From the NCBI GenBank assembly GCA_963743305.1, contig CAVUPH010000018.1, positions 1 to 64,000 of the forward strand: 64,000 bases of DNA, read 5' to 3'. Position numbers and translations under genes: made by a program. Of this stretch, positions 50,524-58,525 are shown one piece after another (within the stretch, counting starts at the first letter, position 1; each line of letters starts with the position of its first letter). Source of the stretch: an uncultured delta proteobacterium (GTDB taxonomy: Bacteria; Desulfobacterota; RBG-13-43-22). The notes beneath the pieces are model-generated. The model searched no databases and was not told the origin of the DNA. It saw only the letters and a list, made by a program, of their open reading frames with translations.

Positions 50524-51552
50524 CTACGATGGAAACAGGGTTGTGCCGGCGGACCGCAGGTCGCTGACCGCCCGCTTCACCCGCTCGGCCATGGCCCCTT
50601 CCGCTTCGGACAGATAGGTGCGGGGATCGTAGGCCTTTTTGTTGCCCATTTCGCCGTCCACCTTCAGCACCTCGTGGTAATGCCGAAACATATGGTGCAC
50701 GACCTGCCGGGTGAAGGCGTACTGGGTGTCGGTGTCGACATTCATTTTAACCACGCCGTAGTCAATGGCCTCGTGGATGTCGGCCAGTTCCGAGCCCGAG
50801 CCGCCGTGGAAGACCAGGTAGAAGCGGGCCTCCTCGCCGTACTGTTTGACCACCGCTTCCTGACAGTCCCGCAGGATGGAGGGTTTCAATTTGACTGCCC
50901 CGGGCTTGTATACGCCGTGCACGTTTCCAAAGGTGGCCGCCAGCAGGTAGCGGGCCCCTTTTAAGGCATTGAGGCGTCGGGCGACCTCCAGGGTATCCTC
51001 GGGGGTGGTGTAGAGCTTGGCCGAGGCCTCGGCCTTGATGCCGTCTTCCTCCCCTCCGACCACCCCGGCTTCGATTTCCAGAATCAATTCGTTTTTTTGA
51101 AACCGCTCCAGCAGCTTGATGGAAATATCCAGGTTGTCTTTCAGAGGCAGGGCGCTGCCGTCGAACATGTGGCTGCTGAAGAGGTTGGGCCTTCCGGCGG
51201 CCCGCCGCCGCTCCGTTTCCTCCACCAGCGGAAGGACATAGTGATCCAGCTTGTCCGCCTGGCAGTGGTCGGTGTGCAGGGCCACATAGATCGGATAGCG
51301 TTCAGCCGCCCGGTGAACATGTTCGGCGATGGAGATCGCCCCCAGGACCATGTCCTTGACCGACGACCCGGAGGCGAAGGCGGCGCCCCCGGTGGAAACC
51401 TGGATGATACCGTCGCTTTGGCTTTCCGCCAGCCCTTTCAGGACGGCGTTGGCCGTGGTCAGGGAAGTGACGTTGATGGCCGGGTAGGCGAAGCGCCCCT
51501 CACGGGCACGATCGAGCATTTTACAGTAGGTCTGGTAATCGGCAACCGGCAT
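50524..51552 (-). CDS. fbaA: class II fructose-bisphosphate aldolase
   Basis: LHTDHC, SHMFDGS, FGNVHG, VFHGGSG and YDPR. Confidence 0.93.
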   Translation of the reverse strand: MPVADYQTYCKMLDRAREGRFAYPAINVTSLTTANAVLKGLAESQSDGIIQVSTGGAAFASGSSVKDMVLGAISIAEHVHRAAERYPIYVALHTDHCQADKLDHYVLPLVEETERRRAAGRPNLFSSHMFDGSALPLKDNLDISIKLLERFQKNELILEIEAGVVGGEEDGIKAEASAKLYTTPEDTLEVARRLNALKGARYLLAATFGNVHGVYKPGAVKLKPSILRDCQEAVVKQYGEEARFYLVFHGGSGSELADIHEAIDYGVVKMNVDTDTQYAFTRQVVHHMFRHYHEVLKVDGEMGNKKAYDPRTYLSEAEGAMAERVKRAVSDLRSAGTTLFPS

Positions 51553-53741
51553 GACTTTTCCTTTCTGATGAGGCTAAAAAAGAAATAGCGCTTTCATCTG
51601 GTAAATTCTCTTTATCCCCAAAGGCCATTATCGGGGGTCTGGTGTTCCTTCTGAATCCTTGCGCAATCCGTTCCATCAGGACCACAATCGACCGGGGCTG
51701 CACCGGGTAGGTCGATCCGGAAACAGCCGGGGCGTAGGCCCAAGTGCCGATGTCTTCGGGCGGGTCCAGCGCGGTGTCGATCCAGCGGTGCCAGGCCTTG
51801 CCCTGCAGGTTTTGAACGGGCGGCAGTTCAAAGGTCAGGGGCTCCCAGTAGGCGTTCAACATCATGTGAGTCAAGAGCCGTCCCTGGCGGCTCCAGGCGC
51901 TGAAGGCCAGACTATGAGAATCCGGACCCCAATCAGGCTGGCTGAGCTTGACCCCGTGCCACTGAATCCGGGCCTGTCTGAGGATCTGGCTCAGGGTCAA
52001 CTCCTGGCTGGGGGTGAAGGTGTCCGTGCGCAGGCGGGCCGCGATCAGGCTCTTGACGAAACGGTGCACGTCGGCATGTTCAGCCAGGAGGTCCCAATCA
52101 AACCAACTGATTTCGTTGTCCTGGCAGTAGGCGTTGTTGTTTCCCCCCTGGGTCCGGCGGACCTCGTCGCCCATCAGCAGCATGGGTGCCCCCAGGGACA
52201 GAAGGGTAACGGTCAGAAAGTTCTTTACCTGGCGGTTGCGGATCCTTTCGATTTCCGGGTCGTCCGCTGGGGCCTTCCACCCCGCAGTTCCAACTCAGGT
52301 TGTCGTCGGTGCCGTCGCGGTTCTCTTCGCCGTTGTCCTCGTTGTGTTTGGTGTTGTAGGAGACCAGGTCGTTCAGGGTAAAGCCGTCGTGGCAGGTAAT
52401 GAAATTGATGCTTTGTTCCGGTTCGCGTTCCTGCCCGCCGTAAAGGTCCGGGCTGCCCAGCAGCCGGGAGGCCACCCCGGAAACGGCTGCCGCGGTCGCC
52501 TTTGATAAAGCTCCGCACATCATCCCGGAATTTGCCGTTCCATTCCTTCCAGCTTTCCCCGACAAAGCTGCCCACCTGGTAAAGCCCGGCCGCATCCCAG
52601 GCTTCGGCAATCAGCTTGGTTCCGGCCAGGACCGGGTCGGAATCGATATCCCAGAGGACCGGGGGATTGGCCAGGGGTTGGCCGGTCTTCATCCCGGGAA
52701 AGGATGGCGGCCAGGTCAAAACGGAAGCCGTCCACGTGCATCTCCTTGACCCAGTGGTGCAGACTATCGATGATCATCCGCCGGACGATGGAGTTGCCGG
52801 AATTGAGGGTATTGCCGCACCCGGAATAGTTGGCGTACCGTCCGGTGGCGGCCTCCAGGATGTAGTAGGCCCGGTTTTCAAAACCCCGATAGCAGAGGGT
52901 CGGACCGTCTTCGTGCCCTTCGGTGGTGTGGTTAAAGACCACGTCCAGGATGACCTCGATCCCGGCTCGGTGCAGGGCCTTGACCATATCCCGGAATTCA
53001 TCCAACGGACCGAGGGGGCCTCGGCGGGAGCAGTAACCCCCGTGAGGGGCGAAGAAGCTGACCGGACTGTAGCCCCAGTAATTCTTGAAGCCGGGAGGCG
53101 CGTCCTGTTCATCAAATTCGAAAGACCGGGAGGAGCTCCACGGCGGTGATTCCCAAATCCTGCAGGTAGGGGATTTTTTCGATCAACCCGGCGTAGGTCC
53201 CCCGCTTGTCCACCGCTACACCGGAACTGGGATGACGGGTGAATCCCCGGACGTGCAGTTCATAGATAATGGTATTGGAAAACGGACGCCGGAGTGGGGC
53301 GTCCCCCTCCCAATCGTAAAGGCTCAAATCCGCCACCACGCTTTTCATGGCCGTGGCCGTGTTGTCTCCCGGAAGGCCGGCGGCCAGCCGGCTGTAATGA
53401 GGCGGCGTCACCAAGGCCTTGCCGTAGGGATCCAGCAGAATTTTTTGGCCGTCAAAACGCAGCCCCTTTTCCGGTGCATAGGGGCCGGAGACATGGAAGC
53501 CGTAGATTTGTCCGCAACGCAGGCCGGGGACGAAGACATGCCAGTAAAAATAGGTCCGGTTTTTGTTTGGTTCCAGGAGAATGACCCGGGCCGGTCGGGC
53601 GTCATCGGCCCGGTCGAACAGGAGCAGTTCCACTCCGGAGGCGTTTTTGGAATAGACGCTGAAATTGACGCCTTCCGGGTTGCCAGTGGCTCCGAGGGGG
53701 AAAGCGCTTCCCGGGGGATAGTGATCGCTAGGAGAGTTCAT
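51521..53741 (-). CDS. glgX: glycogen debranching enzyme, split by frameshifts
   Basis: [41 protein letters not shown] and [10 protein letters not shown] across four ORF pieces. Confidence 0.9.
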
Positions 53742-53961: not shown

Positions 53962-54242
53962 ATGAAGACTCTAACGATCACTGACGCCAAAAAAAATCTC
54001 AGCCGGTGGTTGGTCGCCGCCTCCAGCGGCGAAGACATCGGGATTATCTGCGGGGCGGACGATCATCGCCCTGCGCAAAGTCACGGTGGAATCCACGGAC
54101 TACGCACAGCGCGAATACGGTGCGACGCCCGAACAGGTCGCCGCCTTGGAAAAGGCCACGGGACAGACGCTACCGTAAGCTCAAGCTGCTCCGGAGAATC
54201 TGGTCCGTCACGACCGAACAGTTGGGGAAGTTGATTGGCTAA
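53962..54242 (+). pseudogene. Phd/YefM-like antitoxin, frameshifted
   Basis: MKTLTITDAKKNLSR N-terminus; upstream TTGACA with AGACT..AGTCT operator-like palindromes. Confidence 0.65.
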
Positions 54243-54525
54243 ATCGCTCACCCTCGACCCTACCGTGATACGGCGGCTACGGGAGTCTGCAAGACCGAAA
54301 AGGGTGAGTGCCTGCGGGCGTTATCTGAGCTAACCGAAACTTTCGGTCAACCCCATATTCACAGCGGGTTGGCCATTCGTAAATTAGGGAGCAAGCTCTT
54401 TGAATGTCGTGGTAGCTTGGCGTTGCGTTTTATCTTCCAAGACCGGCCCACCGGTCTTTTCGTCTCCTTTTTGGGCAACCACGACGAAATCACAAGCTTT
54501 GCTTAAAAGTGGTAAGTATCGTTGA
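54235..54525 (+). pseudogene. RelE/ParE-like toxin, frameshifted, not in the ORF track
   Basis: MAKSLTL..., FGQPHIHSGLAIRKLGSKLFECRGSLALRFIF...FLGNHDEI; overlaps the antitoxin end. Confidence 0.6.
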
Positions 54526-54668
54526 ATCTAAATGGTTGATTATCCCCGATTGCCATTATCGGTGACCCAATATTCCCTCTCTGTGCGTCCTGGTAATAAT
54601 CCAACAGAAAAACCTCTGGCTTTGCCGGGGGGCATTCAACTTTTCCCTGAAAATTAAGGTTGGAGGGG

Positions 54669-55715
54669 CTAAGGTTCCAAAAAACATTGCGGGTCTTCCC
54701 CGGTCAGATGGGGACGGCCCCCGGCCCGGGAAAAGGCATAGGCCATGGCCCGGCATCCCCGGCAGGCCGCCCACCGGCGGCAACGGCCGCATTTTCCCTC
54801 GTAACTGTTTCTATCCCTTAGCCGCTCCAGGACCGGGGAGCCGCTCCAAAGTTCACGCAGGGAGTCCCGGCGCACATTTCCGATGGGGACCGGCAACCGG
54901 CGGCAGGGAGTGACCGTGCCGTCGGCCATCAAGGTCAAGCCGGATACCCCGGCCGCGCACCCGCCTTGGGGGAACCCTCCCAGGTCGTTCGGATCAGCGC
55001 CCGACCCCATCTGCCGGTAAAGGGGATCGCCGCTGACCAGTTCCAATCCGTCGGGAGAGAGGGAATGGATTTCCTGATAAAGGTCCCGGACTTGATCCGG
55101 TTTTAACAGCTTGGAAGAGAGCAGGGCACCTTGACCGGCGGGGATCAATCGGGAGAACCCCAGCCGCTGGACTTTTAAGGCCTGGGCCAGGGGAATCATT
55201 TTTAAAAATTGGTCCCGGTTGAGATCGGATAAAGTCGTATTGATGGTCACCGGGATCCCGGCTTCCACTAAGGTTCCGATCCCTTTCAGCGCTTCGGCAA
55301 AACTGCCTTTCCCCCTGAGGGCCTCATGGGTTTCCTCCAGACCTTCCAGACTGATCTGGACTCCCCGAACCGCCAGGCGGCTCAGTCGGCCTGCCCTATC
55401 CCGATCCAGGAGGGTCCCGTTGGTCAGGAGATAAAGGTCAAAACCCCTCCGACTCATTTCTTCGAGAATTAGAAAAAGATCGGAGCGCAGGAATGGCTCT
55501 CCTCCGGTAACATTGATACTGGTCTGGAAGGTCAGGCCATAGATATTTGACCAGTCTGCCAGCATCAGGGTTATCTCGTTCAGGGTTTCTTTGATTTCAG
55601 AGAAAGTTAATTCCTCAAAATGCCCTTTCTCCTGGTAACAGTGGAGACAATGAAGATTGCATTTTTCGGTCAGATGCCATTGAAAAAAGAAATCCAAGGG
55701 ATGGTCGGTTTGCAT
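54669..55715 (-). CDS. radical SAM/SPASM-domain protein, candidate peptide maturase
   Basis: CNLHCLHC, TGGEP and LTNG; SPASM cysteines CAAG..PC..KCGRC..CRGC..DPQC. Confidence 0.9.
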   Translation of the reverse strand: MQTDHPLDFFFQWHLTEKCNLHCLHCYQEKGHFEELTFSEIKETLNEITLMLADWSNIYGLTFQTSINVTGGEPFLRSDLFLILEEMSRRGFDLYLLTNGTLLDRDRAGRLSRLAVRGVQISLEGLEETHEALRGKGSFAEALKGIGTLVEAGIPVTINTTLSDLNRDQFLKMIPLAQALKVQRLGFSRLIPAGQGALLSSKLLKPDQVRDLYQEIHSLSPDGLELVSGDPLYRQMGSGADPNDLGGFPQGGCAAGVSGLTLMADGTVTPCRRLPVPIGNVRRDSLRELWSGSPVLERLRDRNSYEGKCGRCRRWAACRGCRAMAYAFSRAGGRPHLTGEDPQCFLEP

Positions 55716-55745
55716 TGTTCAGGCCCGTTATCCATTTTCGCATTA

Positions 55746-55830
55746 AGCCCAAGGTCCGGGGGCGGGTACCCCAAAGCATGAAAATAATGGAGCAGACATA
55801 AACCTACTTGATTGACGTTAGTAATTAATA
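55746..55830 (+). repeat. dispersed repeat, second copy at about 63574-63655
   Basis: GGGCGGG.ACC.C.AAGCATGAAAATAA.GG.GCAGACATAA.CCTA...TTGAC.TT..TAATTA is shared by both copies. Confidence 0.7.
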
Positions 55831-55901
55831 ATCAATTGTTAATTATTAATTGTTAATGAGTACCTATGTGGAGCCGAGTTTATTTACACACCAAGGAGAA
55901 A

Positions 55902-55955
55902 GGCGGATAGGGAGCAGGTTAGCGATGCTTTTTCCCCGCCTCCTCCCTATCCGCC
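55902..55955 (-). terminator. strong hairpin between the peptide gene and the radical SAM gene (terminator, attenuator or stabiliser)
   Basis: Perfect 13-bp stem GGCGGATAGGGAG/CTCCCTATCCGCC followed by TTTCT on the minus strand. Confidence 0.6.
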
Positions 55956-55964
55956 CGTTGATTC

Positions 55965-55983
55965 CATTGCTGAACCAGCAATG
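55965..55983 (-). promoter_or_regulatory. candidate bacterial SECIS
   Basis: CATTGCTG-GTT-CAGCAATG perfect 8-bp stem; loop G lies 18 nt after UGA 2 and 27 nt after UGA 1. Confidence 0.7.
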
Positions 55984-55984
55984 T

Positions 55985-56107
55985 TTACGATTTTCACCCT
56001 TTTCACTTGTGGCATACTGTTTTGGGACCTTCCTTCGCCGCTGCCTTCATTTTGGCCCAAAAAGCTGCCTCTTTAACCAACCCCTCCGGGTTCATCTTTT
56101 TTTTCAT
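55985..56107 (-). CDS. putative selenocysteine-containing RiPP precursor, 40 aa, C-x2-U-x2-U; not in the ORF track
   Basis: SD AAGGAGGTGA; MKKKMNPEGLVKEAAFWAKMKAAAKEGPKTVCHK-U-KG-U-KS*; TGA codons at 56005-56003 and 55996-55994, TAA at 55987-55985. Confidence 0.75.
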
Positions 56108-56189
56108 CCCTTTTCACCTCCTTTCTTCGGTCAAATCGCCGGTATCGACTTTCGTCTTTATCCGGCATCCGTCCTTCAACCCGCGACCC

Positions 56190-57833
56190 TCAACTTTGCT
56201 CCCCCTTCTCACGGTCCAAATCCATTTGCCGCAGATCCTTGCGCATGATTTTGCCGGTGGCCGTCAGGGGCAGTTCGGCCAGGAATTCGATTTCCCGGGG
56301 GTATTCATGGGCGGCCAGTCGGGTTTTAATAAACTGCTGGATTTCTTCTTTCAGGGCATGCTCGGGAAGTATTCCGGATTTAAGAACGATAAAGGCCTTG
56401 ACGATTTCCCCCCGTACCGCGTCTGGGCTGCCGATGACCCCGGCCAGGGCCACAGCCGGGTGTTTGATCAGGCAATCTTCGATCTCGGCCGGCCCTATCC
56501 GGTACCCGGCGCTGCTGATCAGGTCGTCCTTGCGCCCCACGAACCAGAAATAGCCCTCCTCGTCCTTGCGGGCCAGGTCGCCGGTCAGACTCCAGTCGCC
56601 GATGAACTTGTCTTCCGTGGCCTGGGGGTTGCCCCAGTAGCCCAGAAACATGACCGGGTCGGGCCGCTGGATGGCCACCTCTCCTATTTCTCCCGAGGGC
56701 AGGACCTGTCCTTCTCCATCCACGATCTCCACCCGGTGACCGGGGATGGCCCGACCCATAGAGCCCCGCCGGTTTTCCATGATCTCGGAACAATTGCCCA
56801 CGACCAGGTTTACTTCCGTCTGCCCGTAGAATTCATTGATCGTCAGCCCCATGACCTTGCGGCCCCACTCCAGGAGTTCTTCGCCCAGTGTCTCCCCGCC
56901 GCAGCCGATGGTCCGCATGGCAAAATCGTAACGGTTCCCCGGGTCCGGGACCTGGCGCATGATCTTCAAGGCCGTGGGCGGCATGAAGGCGTTGCGGATA
57001 CCGTATTTGGCGATAAAATGAAAGGCCTGCTCGGGGTCAAACTTTTTTGCCCGAAAGGCGACCACCGGGACCCCGTGGTGCCAGCTCGGCAGCAGGACGT
57101 CGATCAAACCGCCGATCCAGGCCCAGTCGGCCGGTGTCCAATACAGGTCATCTTTTTTGGGAAAAAAATTATGGAAGAACTCCACTCCGGGGACATGGCC
57201 CAGGACTACCCGCTGGGCATGGAGTGCCCCCTTGGGCGGTCCGGTGGTGCCGGAGGTATAGATAATCAAGGCCGGATCGTCGGCCCTGGTCCGCAGCGGG
57301 GTAAAGGAAGGGGATCCCTTTTCCAGGATTTTCCAGAAATCGACCACTCCATCGGGGGGTTCTCCCCGGGTGACGATGAGCGTCTTCAACTCCGGCAAGC
57401 GGTCCTTTATTTCCAGGATCTTGGGGAGATTGTCTTCGTCGGTGATCACCGCCCGGGCGCCGCTGTGACCCAAACGGTATTCCAGGGCCTCGGGTCCGAA
57501 GAGGGTGAAAAGAGGGAGAGCGATCCCCCCGGTTTTATAGATGGCCAGATGGGAGAGGGCCGTCTCCGGGCATTGCGGCAGGAGGATCCCCACCCGTTCC
57601 CCCCGATGCAGGCCGCAGGCCTGCAAGGCGTTGGCCAGGCGGTTGGAGCGCTGTTTGAGGTCCCAAAAGGTATATTTTTCGACCTGCCCCTTATCGTCTT
57701 CGTAGATCAGGGCCAGGCGGTAGCGCTGATCAGCCCACTTGTCGCAGCAATCCACCCCGATATTGTAGAATAGGGGGACTTTCCAGTGGAAGGAGTTATA
57801 GACCTTTTCGTAGGTGTTCCCTTTTTTGAGCAT
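56190..57833 (-). CDS. acyl-CoA synthetase (AMP-forming, AcsA/MACS-like)
   Basis: YTSGTTGPPKG, EFYGQTE, TGDLA and TATGKI. Confidence 0.92.
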   Translation of the reverse strand: MLKKGNTYEKVYNSFHWKVPLFYNIGVDCCDKWADQRYRLALIYEDDKGQVEKYTFWDLKQRSNRLANALQACGLHRGERVGILLPQCPETALSHLAIYKTGGIALPLFTLFGPEALEYRLGHSGARAVITDEDNLPKILEIKDRLPELKTLIVTRGEPPDGVVDFWKILEKGSPSFTPLRTRADDPALIIYTSGTTGPPKGALHAQRVVLGHVPGVEFFHNFFPKKDDLYWTPADWAWIGGLIDVLLPSWHHGVPVVAFRAKKFDPEQAFHFIAKYGIRNAFMPPTALKIMRQVPDPGNRYDFAMRTIGCGGETLGEELLEWGRKVMGLTINEFYGQTEVNLVVGNCSEIMENRRGSMGRAIPGHRVEIVDGEGQVLPSGEIGEVAIQRPDPVMFLGYWGNPQATEDKFIGDWSLTGDLARKDEEGYFWFVGRKDDLISSAGYRIGPAEIEDCLIKHPAVALAGVIGSPDAVRGEIVKAFIVLKSGILPEHALKEEIQQFIKTRLAAHEYPREIEFLAELPLTATGKIMRKDLRQMDLDREKGEQS

Positions 57834-57876: not shown

Positions 57877-58407
57877 TCATTTTACCAGGTCCGCCTCCAC
57901 CTCCAGGTTAAGGAAGACGTCATTCCCGGCCACCAGGCCGCCGTTTTCCAGGCGGACATTCCACTTTATCCCGAAATCCTGGCGCTTGATCCGGGCAGAG
58001 GCCGAAAAACCTAGGCTGATATCCTCATCAAATGGGCTTTTGACCTGGCCGAGGTATTCCGCATCCATGGTGATCGATCGAGTGACGTCCCGAATGGTTA
58101 GATCGCCGGTCACAATAAAGCCGTTGACGGCGACCGGTTCGATCCGGGTACTTCTAAAGCGAATGAACGGGTATTTATCCACTTCCAAAAAATCAGGGCT
58201 GCACAAGTGCTCGTCCCGCTTCGGGATACCGGTATAGATGGAGGCGGCCTCGATCTCGACTTCCACCGAACCCAGGTCGGGTTTGTCCGGATTGAATTGA
58301 AGGGACCCGGAAATCTTGTTGAACTGGCCGCGAACCAGGGTGATCATGAAGTGCCGGACGGTAAAAGTGGCCACGGTGTGATCAGGGTCAATTTTCCACT
58401 CAGACAT
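57877..58407 (-). CDS. YceI-family protein
   Basis: WKIDPDHT, RDEHL.SPDF and GDLTIRDVTR. Confidence 0.9.
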   Translation of the reverse strand: MSEWKIDPDHTVATFTVRHFMITLVRGQFNKISGSLQFNPDKPDLGSVEVEIEAASIYTGIPKRDEHLCSPDFLEVDKYPFIRFRSTRIEPVAVNGFIVTGDLTIRDVTRSITMDAEYLGQVKSPFDEDISLGFSASARIKRQDFGIKWNVRLENGGLVAGNDVFLNLEVEADLVK

Positions 58408-58525
58408 AGAAACCTCCTTGAAATTCCATTTGCCAACAACTAGAGGAAAGTTTAACATAGTTTAAAAAAAGTTTCTAGTCCAGCGGCTCGACCCTGTTGT
58501 AAAAATATTGATACCATTGATATAG

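Follow-up and report, generated by a model that had tools for sequence, protein, structure and literature searches.

The locus

A short open reading frame (ORF) that can be translated through two in-frame TGA codons was found on the minus strand of a contig from an uncultured delta proteobacterium (GTDB lineage Bacteria; Desulfobacterota; RBG-13-43-22; GenBank assembly GCA_963743305.1, contig CAVUPH010000018.1). The next co-oriented gene encodes a radical S-adenosylmethionine (SAM) enzyme with a SPASM domain. The stretch analysed, referred to as the window, comprises positions 1 to 64,000 of this contig. An earlier note on the window had proposed that the ORF encodes a peptide with two selenocysteine (Sec) residues and that the two genes form a candidate system for a selenium-containing peptide that is made by the ribosome and then modified post-translationally (RiPP). 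The conservation of the peptide, its linkage to the enzyme gene, a selenocysteine insertion sequence (SECIS) and the Sec machinery of the genome supported this candidate. We estimate the probability that the two genes constitute a cassette of a Sec-containing peptide and its maturase at about 0.7. The features of the locus are listed in Table 1; G, C and L numbers in the text denote genomes, contigs and loci, respectively.

Table 1. Sequence features of the peptide and enzyme genes, with positions in the window
Feature	Position	Strand	Details
Shine-Dalgarno-like sequence AAGGAGGTGA	56114..56123	-	6 nt 5' of the peptide ATG; direct reading
Peptide gene	55985..56107	-	40 codons and TAA; translated with TGA as U
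Leader-like part of the peptide	residues 1-31		invariant E13, A14, W17, K21 and P28 (alignments A1 and A3)
Core of the peptide	C32-H-K-U35-K-G-U38-K-S		C-terminal to the leader-like part
First in-frame TGA (Sec35)	56003..56005	-	TGA in 40 of 41 distinct gene versions, TGC in 1
Second in-frame TGA (Sec38)	55994..55996	-	TGA in 40 of 41 distinct gene versions, TGC in 1
Bacterial SECIS (bSECIS)-type hairpin CAUUGCUG-GUU-CAGCAAUG	55965..55983	-	perfect 8 bp, GUU loop
Terminator-like long hairpin	55901..55956	-	-42.8 kcal/mol, z -5.19; then U-rich UUUCUCCUU (55892-55900)
AT-rich palindromic dispersed repeat TTAATAAT-N9-ATTATTAA	55822..55859		about 35 nt; between terminator and enzyme gene
Radical SAM/SPASM enzyme gene	54669..55715	-	348 aa; Pfam Radical_SAM 1.3e-22, SPASM 3e-10; next co-oriented gene

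The peptide gene and its conservation

With TGA read as U, the translation of 56107..55985 (minus strand) is MKKKMNPEGLVKEAAFWAKMKAAAKEGPKTVCHKUKGUKS*. Under translation table 11 the sole ORF is 34 aa long (56003..56107, minus strand), in agreement with the earlier statement that gene callers truncate the peptide at the first UGA. The remaining description given there, a minus-strand ORF with a Shine-Dalgarno sequence, two in-frame TGAs continuing the register of a Cys residue and a TAA at the end, was correct in every point. The N-terminal part of the peptide is amphipathic and conserved (..KEAA[FY]W..K..P..). It is followed by the C-terminal core C-x-x-U-x-x-U-K-x, composed of three [C/U]-x-x units, in which Lys is the only other conserved residue. 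The two UGAs are 9 nt apart. In related loci the translated upstream frames (..ERRW.., ..KGGE.., ..GKEV..) resemble, as judged by eye, GGAGG-type sequences ahead of the start codon.

Assembled RNA-library contigs of one metatranscriptome run included a contig of 209 nt (depth 17, five differences, about 97.5% identity) covering positions 55928-56131. Its span runs from the Shine-Dalgarno sequence through the complete ORF, in which neither TGA is altered, and the SECIS to the middle of the terminator hairpin. This provides a hint of expression of the peptide gene; assembled contigs show no transcript ends. The enzyme gene had no cover in this run, from which no conclusion is drawn.

Related genomes were searched in six frames with reading through stop codons. 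Within the same family, 15 out of 20 genomes contained the peptide with both in-frame TGAs; among genomes of other families it was 1 out of 20. An alignment of 13 peptide rows (A1) was the source of a search profile; a further alignment (A3) comprises 26 rows. The profile detected the peptide with both in-frame TGAs in 21 out of 401 genomes sampled across the phylum, representing at least six families. Three more weak matches in this set lacked the TGAs and were judged to be unrelated. In a collection of 5.8 billion proteins, the same profile matched 112 clusters at 90% identity. From the 45 database sequences inspected, 44 end with ..C-[HRN]-[KN] directly before the first UGA, and in the 45th (P0051) both TGAs were called as W (..CHKWKAWKS). 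An all-Cys form was not found among these 45 sequences. The entries inspected were named 'hypothetical protein', carried no name, or in two cases had a spurious one. The peptide family exposes a systematic annotation error, with database entries cut at the first UGA.

The 47 locus hits resulted in 41 distinct gene versions. Both TGAs are present in 39 of them, and the other two each carry TGC at one position. For this collection the search pattern itself demanded Cys at position 0 and a Lys following the second Sec; the invariance of these two residues rests on alignment A1 and on the enzyme-anchored loci described below. The six codons past the first TGA are kept in frame across phyla. The second TGA always stands three codons on and is followed by Lys, and K-x-U-K-x is conserved past the first UGA. 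Homologs with TAA or TAG at the first UGA, which the earlier note had named as evidence against its proposal, were not found, and Cys replaces Sec once per position. The gene ends after a tail of 2-4 residues with TAA (16 versions), TAG (13) or TGA (12). In the latter group (e.g. L024, L029, L039, L042, L069 and L109) the terminal TGA lies 2-3 codons past the second Sec codon, and these versions provide a natural test of the spacing rule that distinguishes Sec from stop. The conservation among relatives, rather than the window sequence taken alone, shows that the reading frame did not arise by chance. On the alignments, the conserved features of a selenoprotein gene are present, namely an in-frame UGA among homologs and coding conservation downstream of it.

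The two Cys-substituted forms, CHKCKSUKS and CHKUESCKS, are paralogs that both occur in genome G020. Judged from the sequence, they are a classical Sec/Cys signature. G020, for which contamination is given as 10%, contains three copies of the peptide gene, L064 (C10:534970), L066 (C10:222856) and L150 (C15:128585). The copy within a cassette has Cys at the second Sec position, one orphan copy has Cys at the first, and the other orphan has both Sec. The both-Sec orphan is located 283 nt upstream of a gene for a pyridine nucleotide-disulfide oxidoreductase, a possible reductase partner.

The SECIS-type hairpin

The perfect 8-bp hairpin with a G-U-U loop that had been noticed at SECIS distance was borne out by fold, spacing and covariation. 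It begins 1 nt past the TAA, 10 nt past the second UGA (UGA2) and 19 nt past the first (UGA1). Its folding energy is -10 kcal/mol (z -4.5), and 0 out of 200 shuffled sequences were equally stable. The 81-nt stretch around the UGAs showed no unusual fold stability (z -0.65). A hairpin of 6-9 bp was present in 32 out of 32 loci (26 distinct), starting 8-14 nt past the second UGA. Stem pairs were counted from the loop outward, MAFFT alignment A4 having placed the loops of unequal length out of register. Counted in this way, more than one kind of standard base pair occurs at each of the stem positions 1-4 and 6-8; the first pair, for instance, can be G-C, C-G, A-U or U-A. Loop sequences include GUU, GGUC, GUC, GUG, GGUCA, UGGAU, AGUUC and similar ones, with G in first or second position; in L042 a G in the loop requires an alternative register. 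Several relatives carry GUUGCAGGUCUGCAAC at the SECIS, which we take to resemble the SECIS of Escherichia coli fdhF.

The distance from the UGA to the loop in the window is 18 nt for UGA2 and 27 nt for UGA1. Across the 32 loci it ranges from 16 to 22 nt and from 25 to 31 nt, respectively. [quoted passage not shown] The window hairpin agrees with this model for both UGAs. As UGA2 and UGA1 are both inside the model spacing, a single element is sufficient for the two. In versions with a third UGA, this codon is only 7-13 nt away from the SECIS loop, nearer than the model permits, and therefore should act as a stop. The hairpins of three relatives fold at -7.1 to -7.4 kcal/mol only, calculated in a 39-nt window. 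An Rfam search of positions 54000-57000 with E values up to 10 yielded no SECIS family. Sub-threshold matches to microRNA-like families corresponded to the terminator hairpin only and were discarded.

Selenocysteine machinery

The genome encodes selB (363.5 bits) and a tRNA-Sec on contig C6. A selD gene with a Sec TGA of its own was detected in two frames with 210 and 170 bits (G000 C26:75850-76774, minus strand; loci L009 and L010). Its division over two frames may reflect either an assembly indel or a pseudogene. A further broken gene is located in the window at 51521-53741 (minus strand), where at least four overlapping ORFs represent one gene, from its translation presumably a glycogen-debranching enzyme. 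Both this gene and the divided selD point to indel errors in the assembly.

The radical SAM/SPASM enzyme

The longest possible ORF of the enzyme places the CxxxCxxC motif at residues 19-26 (C19/C23/C26). Because the motif starts at residue 19 and the ORF cannot begin further upstream, there is no room for an N-terminal RiPP recognition element (RRE). Seven Cys residues of the SPASM region (253, 271, 309, 312, 318, 321 and 344) are invariant in the enzyme family. By analogy with CteB, the first auxiliary cluster would then have one iron open to ligation by the substrate.

No NCBIfam hidden Markov model (HMM) attained its cut-off on the enzyme. The highest score was obtained with AhbD (TIGR04545; 172.3 bits, cut-off 500), followed by SbtM (TIGR04082; 161.6 bits, cut-off 350), NirJ2 (158.9 bits; NirJ models overall 129-159 bits with cut-offs of at least 500), ACGX (158.1), MftC (132), StsB (98.2, cut-off 625), PqqE (78.6) and PapB (68.6, cut-off 340). 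The analysis confirmed the complete SPASM domain, the lack of an evident N-terminal RRE and the likeness to NirJ/Ahb proteins by score, all of which had been pointed out before. The true AhbD of the genome, with 541.7 bits, is encoded on another contig (C14:169629-170645).

A quick maximum-likelihood tree was calculated from 52 rows, consisting of 21 family members (one row with a stop), the C-terminal parts of 9 SbtM proteins, AhbD and its kin, and unclassified neighbours. The enzyme family occupied one side of a branch; its support in the Shimodaira-Hasegawa-like approximate likelihood ratio test (SH-aLRT) is given as 100 by the group table and as 89 at the fork of the drawn tree. The SbtM proteins were set apart on a long branch, and the AhbD group branched off separately as well. 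The enzyme did not group with AhbD, an outcome that the earlier note had listed among those speaking against its proposal. A profile search of 1.84 billion representatives gave scores falling from 541 to about 300 bits without a break. Since these scores show no gap, the family was delimited from the tree together with the presence of a linked peptide gene. The AlphaFold model of the enzyme has a mean predicted local distance difference test score (pLDDT) of 84.9. SkfB is the nearest solved fold, and SuiB, PqqE and anSME are also among the nearest. Searching a protein atlas gave unnamed clusters only, with scores below 0.8.

Linkage of peptide and enzyme

Among the 17 peptide loci examined first, 14 had a full-length, co-oriented homolog of the enzyme (47-98% identity) downstream. 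In 2 loci it was cut by the contig end, and at 1 orphan paralog it was absent. The enzyme was also found in 13 out of 13 further loci resulting from the phylum search. A scan anchored at the enzyme, with one genome per species, gave the same picture. All 12 homologs at 43-62% identity were preceded by a C-x2-U-x2-U-K peptide with both TGAs, in line with the earlier expectation of conserved TGA/TGA peptides beside enzyme homologs. The titles of these 12 metagenome-assembled genomes (MAGs) refer to Nitrospirae/Nitrospirota, 'delta proteobacterium', Deferribacteres, Chloroflexia/Dehalococcoidia, Thermodesulfobacteriota and Syntrophales, and hence to at least three phylum labels. No such peptide was located upstream of four enzyme homologs with 38% identity or less, of which three had nothing comparable and one had an unrelated ORF with a Gly/Cys repeat. 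Four genomes of the same family without the peptide also had no enzyme ortholog (best scores of 161-175 bits vs 591).

In 17 loci of 9-20 kb, the enzyme gene was the sole neighbour conserved across the loci compared. The 10 neighbours scanned were unrelated housekeeping or transport genes, and none of the adjacent ORFs was recognised as a haem gene. In sequence terms the locus has the arrangement expected for a RiPP, in which a short putative precursor, its conserved leader followed by a core at the C-terminus, is encoded next to a radical SAM/SPASM maturase.

In L080, a locus of a Thiotrichaceae MAG, the ORF upstream of a radical SAM/SPASM gene of 36% identity (upstream of 2185) ends in a Gly/Cys repeat (..GGCGGGCGGCGGCGGCGG). 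These two genes probably represent a different pair of peptide and maturase.

Predicted complex of peptide and enzyme

The complex was modelled with the enzyme (alignment A2) and the 34-residue table-11 product of the peptide gene (alignment A3) in three runs, together with three controls. The interface score ipSAE was 0.88 in the three runs vs 0.02 in the best control; this mark was reached by 58 out of 80 solved complexes and 2 out of 110 mismatched pairs, a calibration that is rough with custom alignments. The runs shared at least 91% of contacts, with a partner pLDDT of at least 76. The tightest predicted contacts are those of the leader residues E13, A14, W17 and K21 with W55, Y59, R287, W290 and R300 of the enzyme, which are invariant or nearly so. 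Residues 27-34 of the peptide are predicted to lie against residues 229-231, 250-254 and 271-273 of the enzyme, including the SPASM Cys residues C253 and C271. The predicted complex supports a leader-guided substrate role for the peptide.

Comparison with known systems

The SbtA/SbtM system ('selenobiotic', TIGR04081/TIGR04082, Geobacter and Desulfobacteria) likewise consists of a small precursor with at least two Sec and a SECIS beside a radical SAM/SPASM enzyme, and SbtM was the best-scoring peptide-maturase model for the window enzyme. In contrast to the latter, SbtM has 516 aa including an N-terminal domain of about 200 aa, and the window enzyme matches model positions 199-515 only. In addition, the two are separated by a long branch in the tree. 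SbtA, represented here by its published motif, carries Sec in GGUG/SGUG (PMC9204691, PMC13188914), whereas the motif of the cassette is C-x2-U-K-x-U-K. None of 13 family peptides matched TIGR04081 at E values up to 10. The earlier impression that the peptide does not resemble SbtA held. In the scans proposed in the same note, the enzyme remained far below the cut-offs of TIGR04082 and of the NirJ and AhbD models. A search with regular expressions within 1.5 kb of 12 SbtM genes gave no convincing SbtA-like ORFs. A Syntrophales MAG (G408) encodes both the cassette enzyme (C352:12273-13295) and a full-length SbtM with 697 bits (C106:3640-5178). Because one MAG holds both, SbtA/SbtM and the new cassette are not alternatives to each other.

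PapB, Tte1186/SCIFF, CteB and SkfB, which belong to the ranthipeptide and sactipeptide systems, share the SPASM fold and Cys-type donors in a short core with the cassette. The window enzyme differs from PapB and StsB in scoring below both cut-offs and in having no RRE. Furthermore, the cassette core has no conserved Asp/Glu acceptor as in the thioether systems; Lys is conserved instead, and Sec is native rather than engineered. AhbD and NirJ share the highest HMM similarity, a length of about 340 aa and the lack of extra domains. They differ by the sub-cut-off score, the separate true AhbD in the genome, their separate branches and the missing haem context.

Selenoproteins of the UxxU or 'UXX-star' kind (NF041115, the FmdB-type TIGR02605, NF041114 and NF041211) also have two Sec spaced by three positions, or one Sec at three residues' distance from the C-terminus. 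The UxxU families thus provide a precedent for UGAs 9 nt apart. However, at E values up to 10 the 13 family peptides matched none of these models. Their sole NCBIfam match was that of one member to NF002179 ('hypothetical protein') with an E value of 0.024, and the peptide is not covered by any model of NCBIfam or Pfam.

QhpD is not known to require an RRE. The QhpC/QhpD system, mycofactocin (MftA/MftC) and PQQ (PqqA/PqqE) also comprise a small peptide with a C-terminal core and a SPASM enzyme, and their product is kept intracellular. In contrast to the cassette, which has two conserved genes only, they include further conserved genes (MftB/PqqD, processing enzymes), and they do not involve selenium.

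In Table 1 of PMC13188914, a 2026 inventory of 119 prokaryotic selenoprotein families and subfamilies, the sole RiPP-type entry is 'selenobacteriocin' (TIGR04081, SGUG). This table lists neither a 40-residue C-x2-U-x2-U-K peptide nor such a radical SAM partner. A literature search, with the supplementary tables of selenoproteome papers outside its scope, also gave no description of the peptide. The gene pair is likely to represent a new seleno-RiPP-like family, the second one, which on the alignments appears unrelated to SbtA/SbtM in its peptide sequence.

A possible route from peptide to product

In the two-gene cassette the first gene would encode a 40-residue peptide translated through two UGAs as Sec, and one SECIS hairpin just past the stop would serve both. 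The RRE-less enzyme may bind the N-terminal helix of the peptide directly via W55, Y59, R287, W290 and R300 and may thread the core into its barrel beside the first auxiliary cluster. There, Cys and Sec could be modified by 5'-deoxyadenosyl-radical chemistry, with the selenolate ligated to the open iron site and hydrogen abstraction at or beside the chalcogen residues.

Two precedents are known for the chemistry. SbtM abstracts the beta-hydrogen of Cys/Sec and forms a thio(seleno)oxazole (PMC9204691). PapB and Tte1186 ligate a substrate Sec to the iron of an auxiliary cluster and form Se-C bonds (PMC10177961). The core with its three [C/U]-x-x units would fit Se-C (selenoether) crosslinks within each unit, which are a tentative suggestion for the product. 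It would also fit selenooxazole rings of the SbtM type, with one heterocycle per chalcogen residue, and these are considered almost as likely; another chemistry altogether is given the same odds as the crosslinks. Genes for a protease, an exporter or immunity are not conserved in the neighbourhood, and we therefore suggest that the product is an intracellular, redox- or metal-active selenopeptide or cofactor and not an antibiotic.

In its widest form, the proposal describes a second, independent and selenium-dependent class of natural Se-RiPPs with more than 100 clusters in at least three phyla. A C-terminal Cys-Sec-Sec triad would be converted to a Se-C crosslinked or heterocyclic centre by an RRE-less enzyme reading the leader helix, giving a new intracellular peptide-derived redox or metal cofactor of anaerobic bacteria; one SECIS would serve two UGAs, and a third UGA would act as stop in 12 of the 41 versions. 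We regard this combination as possible, at somewhat less than even odds.

In the parts of PMC9204691 and PMC13188914 that bear on this subject, SbtA/SbtM is so far the only natural family of Sec-containing RiPPs. A second family, if true, would indicate that selenium has repeatedly been used as a building block of modified peptides. With a minimal enzyme of 348 aa, the compact two-gene system could show radical SAM chemistry on a native selenolate. Moreover, expression of the cassette could give insight into leader recognition by an RRE-less enzyme and into the decoding of two UGAs by a single SECIS when another UGA just downstream terminates translation.

Evidence weighed against the cassette and alternative explanations

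Several observations weigh against a pair of Sec-peptide and maturase. Of the Sec machinery that the earlier note had asked to confirm, the genome has selB, tRNA-Sec and a selD divided between two frames, but selA was not found with TIGR00474 or PF03841 in this assembly, which is 90% complete. In 5 out of 5 relatives carrying the cassette, three of them of the same genus, selA was detected above the cut-off. The enzyme has no RRE, and in the 17 loci compared (9-20 kb each) a PqqD-like gene, a protease, or a transporter or exporter did not recur; RiPP clusters are not typically built in this way. The two genes are separated by the terminator-like hairpin and an AT-rich spacer, the gap from peptide gene to enzyme gene being 269 nt in the window and variable across loci (120-420 nt), so that both genes need not be co-transcribed. 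The top HMM match of the enzyme, AhbD, is not a peptide enzyme, and the tree leaves the sister group of the enzyme family unresolved. In the predicted complex the peptide was folded with 34 residues only, and the Sec residues are not part of the model. Finally, the RNA contig originates from the assembled contigs of a single run, and carry-over of DNA is possible.

Among the alternatives, the one that fares best regards the peptide as a true double-Sec mini-selenoprotein that is a partner of the enzyme and not its substrate. It may be a redox shuttle, a ligand of a metal or iron-sulfur cluster through the C-x2-U-x2-U triad, or a donor of selenium or electrons that the enzyme uses when acting on another molecule. 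No RRE, protease or exporter is conserved nearby, the orphan copies in G020 are located away from the enzyme, one of them upstream of the oxidoreductase mentioned above, and two enzymes of tetrapyrrole synthesis, AhbD and NirJ2, are among the named HMMs closest to the enzyme; all of this would fit a partner. Terminal-Sec (UXX-star) proteins may be metal ligands, as discussed in PMC13188914. Nevertheless, we consider this role improbable. The predicted complex sets residues 27-34 inside the barrel by the SPASM Cys residues, as expected for a substrate, and not on the surface, and the nearest solved folds are those of peptide maturases. The one-to-one co-occurrence of both genes fits a substrate equally well.

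According to a second alternative, the short ORF is a selenium-sensing leader without a functional peptide product, in which passage of the UGAs, depending on the supply of Sec-tRNA, determines terminator formation and thereby attenuates the enzyme gene. The order of two UGAs, SECIS, strong terminator-like hairpin and enzyme gene, common to many relatives, is what such a mechanism would use. However, attenuation does not need the 31 N-terminal residues that are conserved across phyla with E13, W17 and P28 invariant, nor their predicted contacts to invariant residues of the enzyme. Orphan copies occur without an enzyme gene, and the spacer behind the terminator is variable. We therefore regard attenuation as very unlikely.

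That the TGAs are ordinary stops, with a 34-residue ..VCHK peptide or no product at all and a hairpin that is merely part of the terminator, is more improbable still. Databases annotate the gene in this way, selA is missing from the assembly, and Rfam gave no match to a SECIS. Ordinary stops would not explain in-frame codons conserved across phyla past the first TGA, with the second TGA and Lys always present, nor the replacement of each TGA by TGC in one case. The hairpin keeps the G/U of the SECIS loop and its spacing while the stem covaries, and a separate terminator follows; the cassette-carrying relatives have selA. An enzyme of the haem or haem-d1 pathway (AhbD/NirJ type) with an incidentally adjacent small ORF is the least credible alternative, as the scores of AhbD and NirJ2, although the former was the top NCBIfam match, are far below 500, the true AhbD is encoded elsewhere, the AhbD group forms a separate branch, no haem genes flank the enzyme, and the linkage to the peptide holds across phyla.

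The spacer and neighbouring genes

The hairpin at 55901-55956, which was not mentioned in the earlier note, looks like an intrinsic terminator. Many related loci show equivalent GGCGGAU...AUCCGCC hairpins followed by a U-tract. A simple terminator scan skipped it due to the length of its loop. For the AT-rich repeat behind it, blastn-short returned 61 rows distributed over 31 contigs of this genome, and metagenome contigs matched it with unrelated flanks. On C26, a copy precedes the gene for a B12-binding radical SAM protein by about 100 nt. The repeat is probably not specific to the cassette. The sole promoter-like match, TTAACA-17-GATTAT at 55856-55828 (minus strand), is situated within the repeat; the scan returned 1 site vs 1.2 expected.

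Three candidates for additional components of the cassette were rejected. The acyl-CoA synthetase gene upstream (56190-57833) is linked within the genus only, apart from one 29%-identical case. Clusters of ATP-binding cassette (ABC)-type and other neighbours were inconsistent between loci. A gene for a B12-binding radical SAM protein of about 560-600 aa is associated with the peptide in only two other genera of the family, and the 59%-identical ortholog of the window genome is unlinked on contig C26. In these genera (g3 and g4) it immediately precedes the peptide gene in the same orientation (L051, L052, L053, L021-L028 and L068). A protein of about 190 aa is encoded near the peptide in the window (57877-58458, minus strand), and a related one is encoded beside the orphan copy L064 in G020. 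Both are presumably YceI-like proteins, seen at these two loci of the same family.

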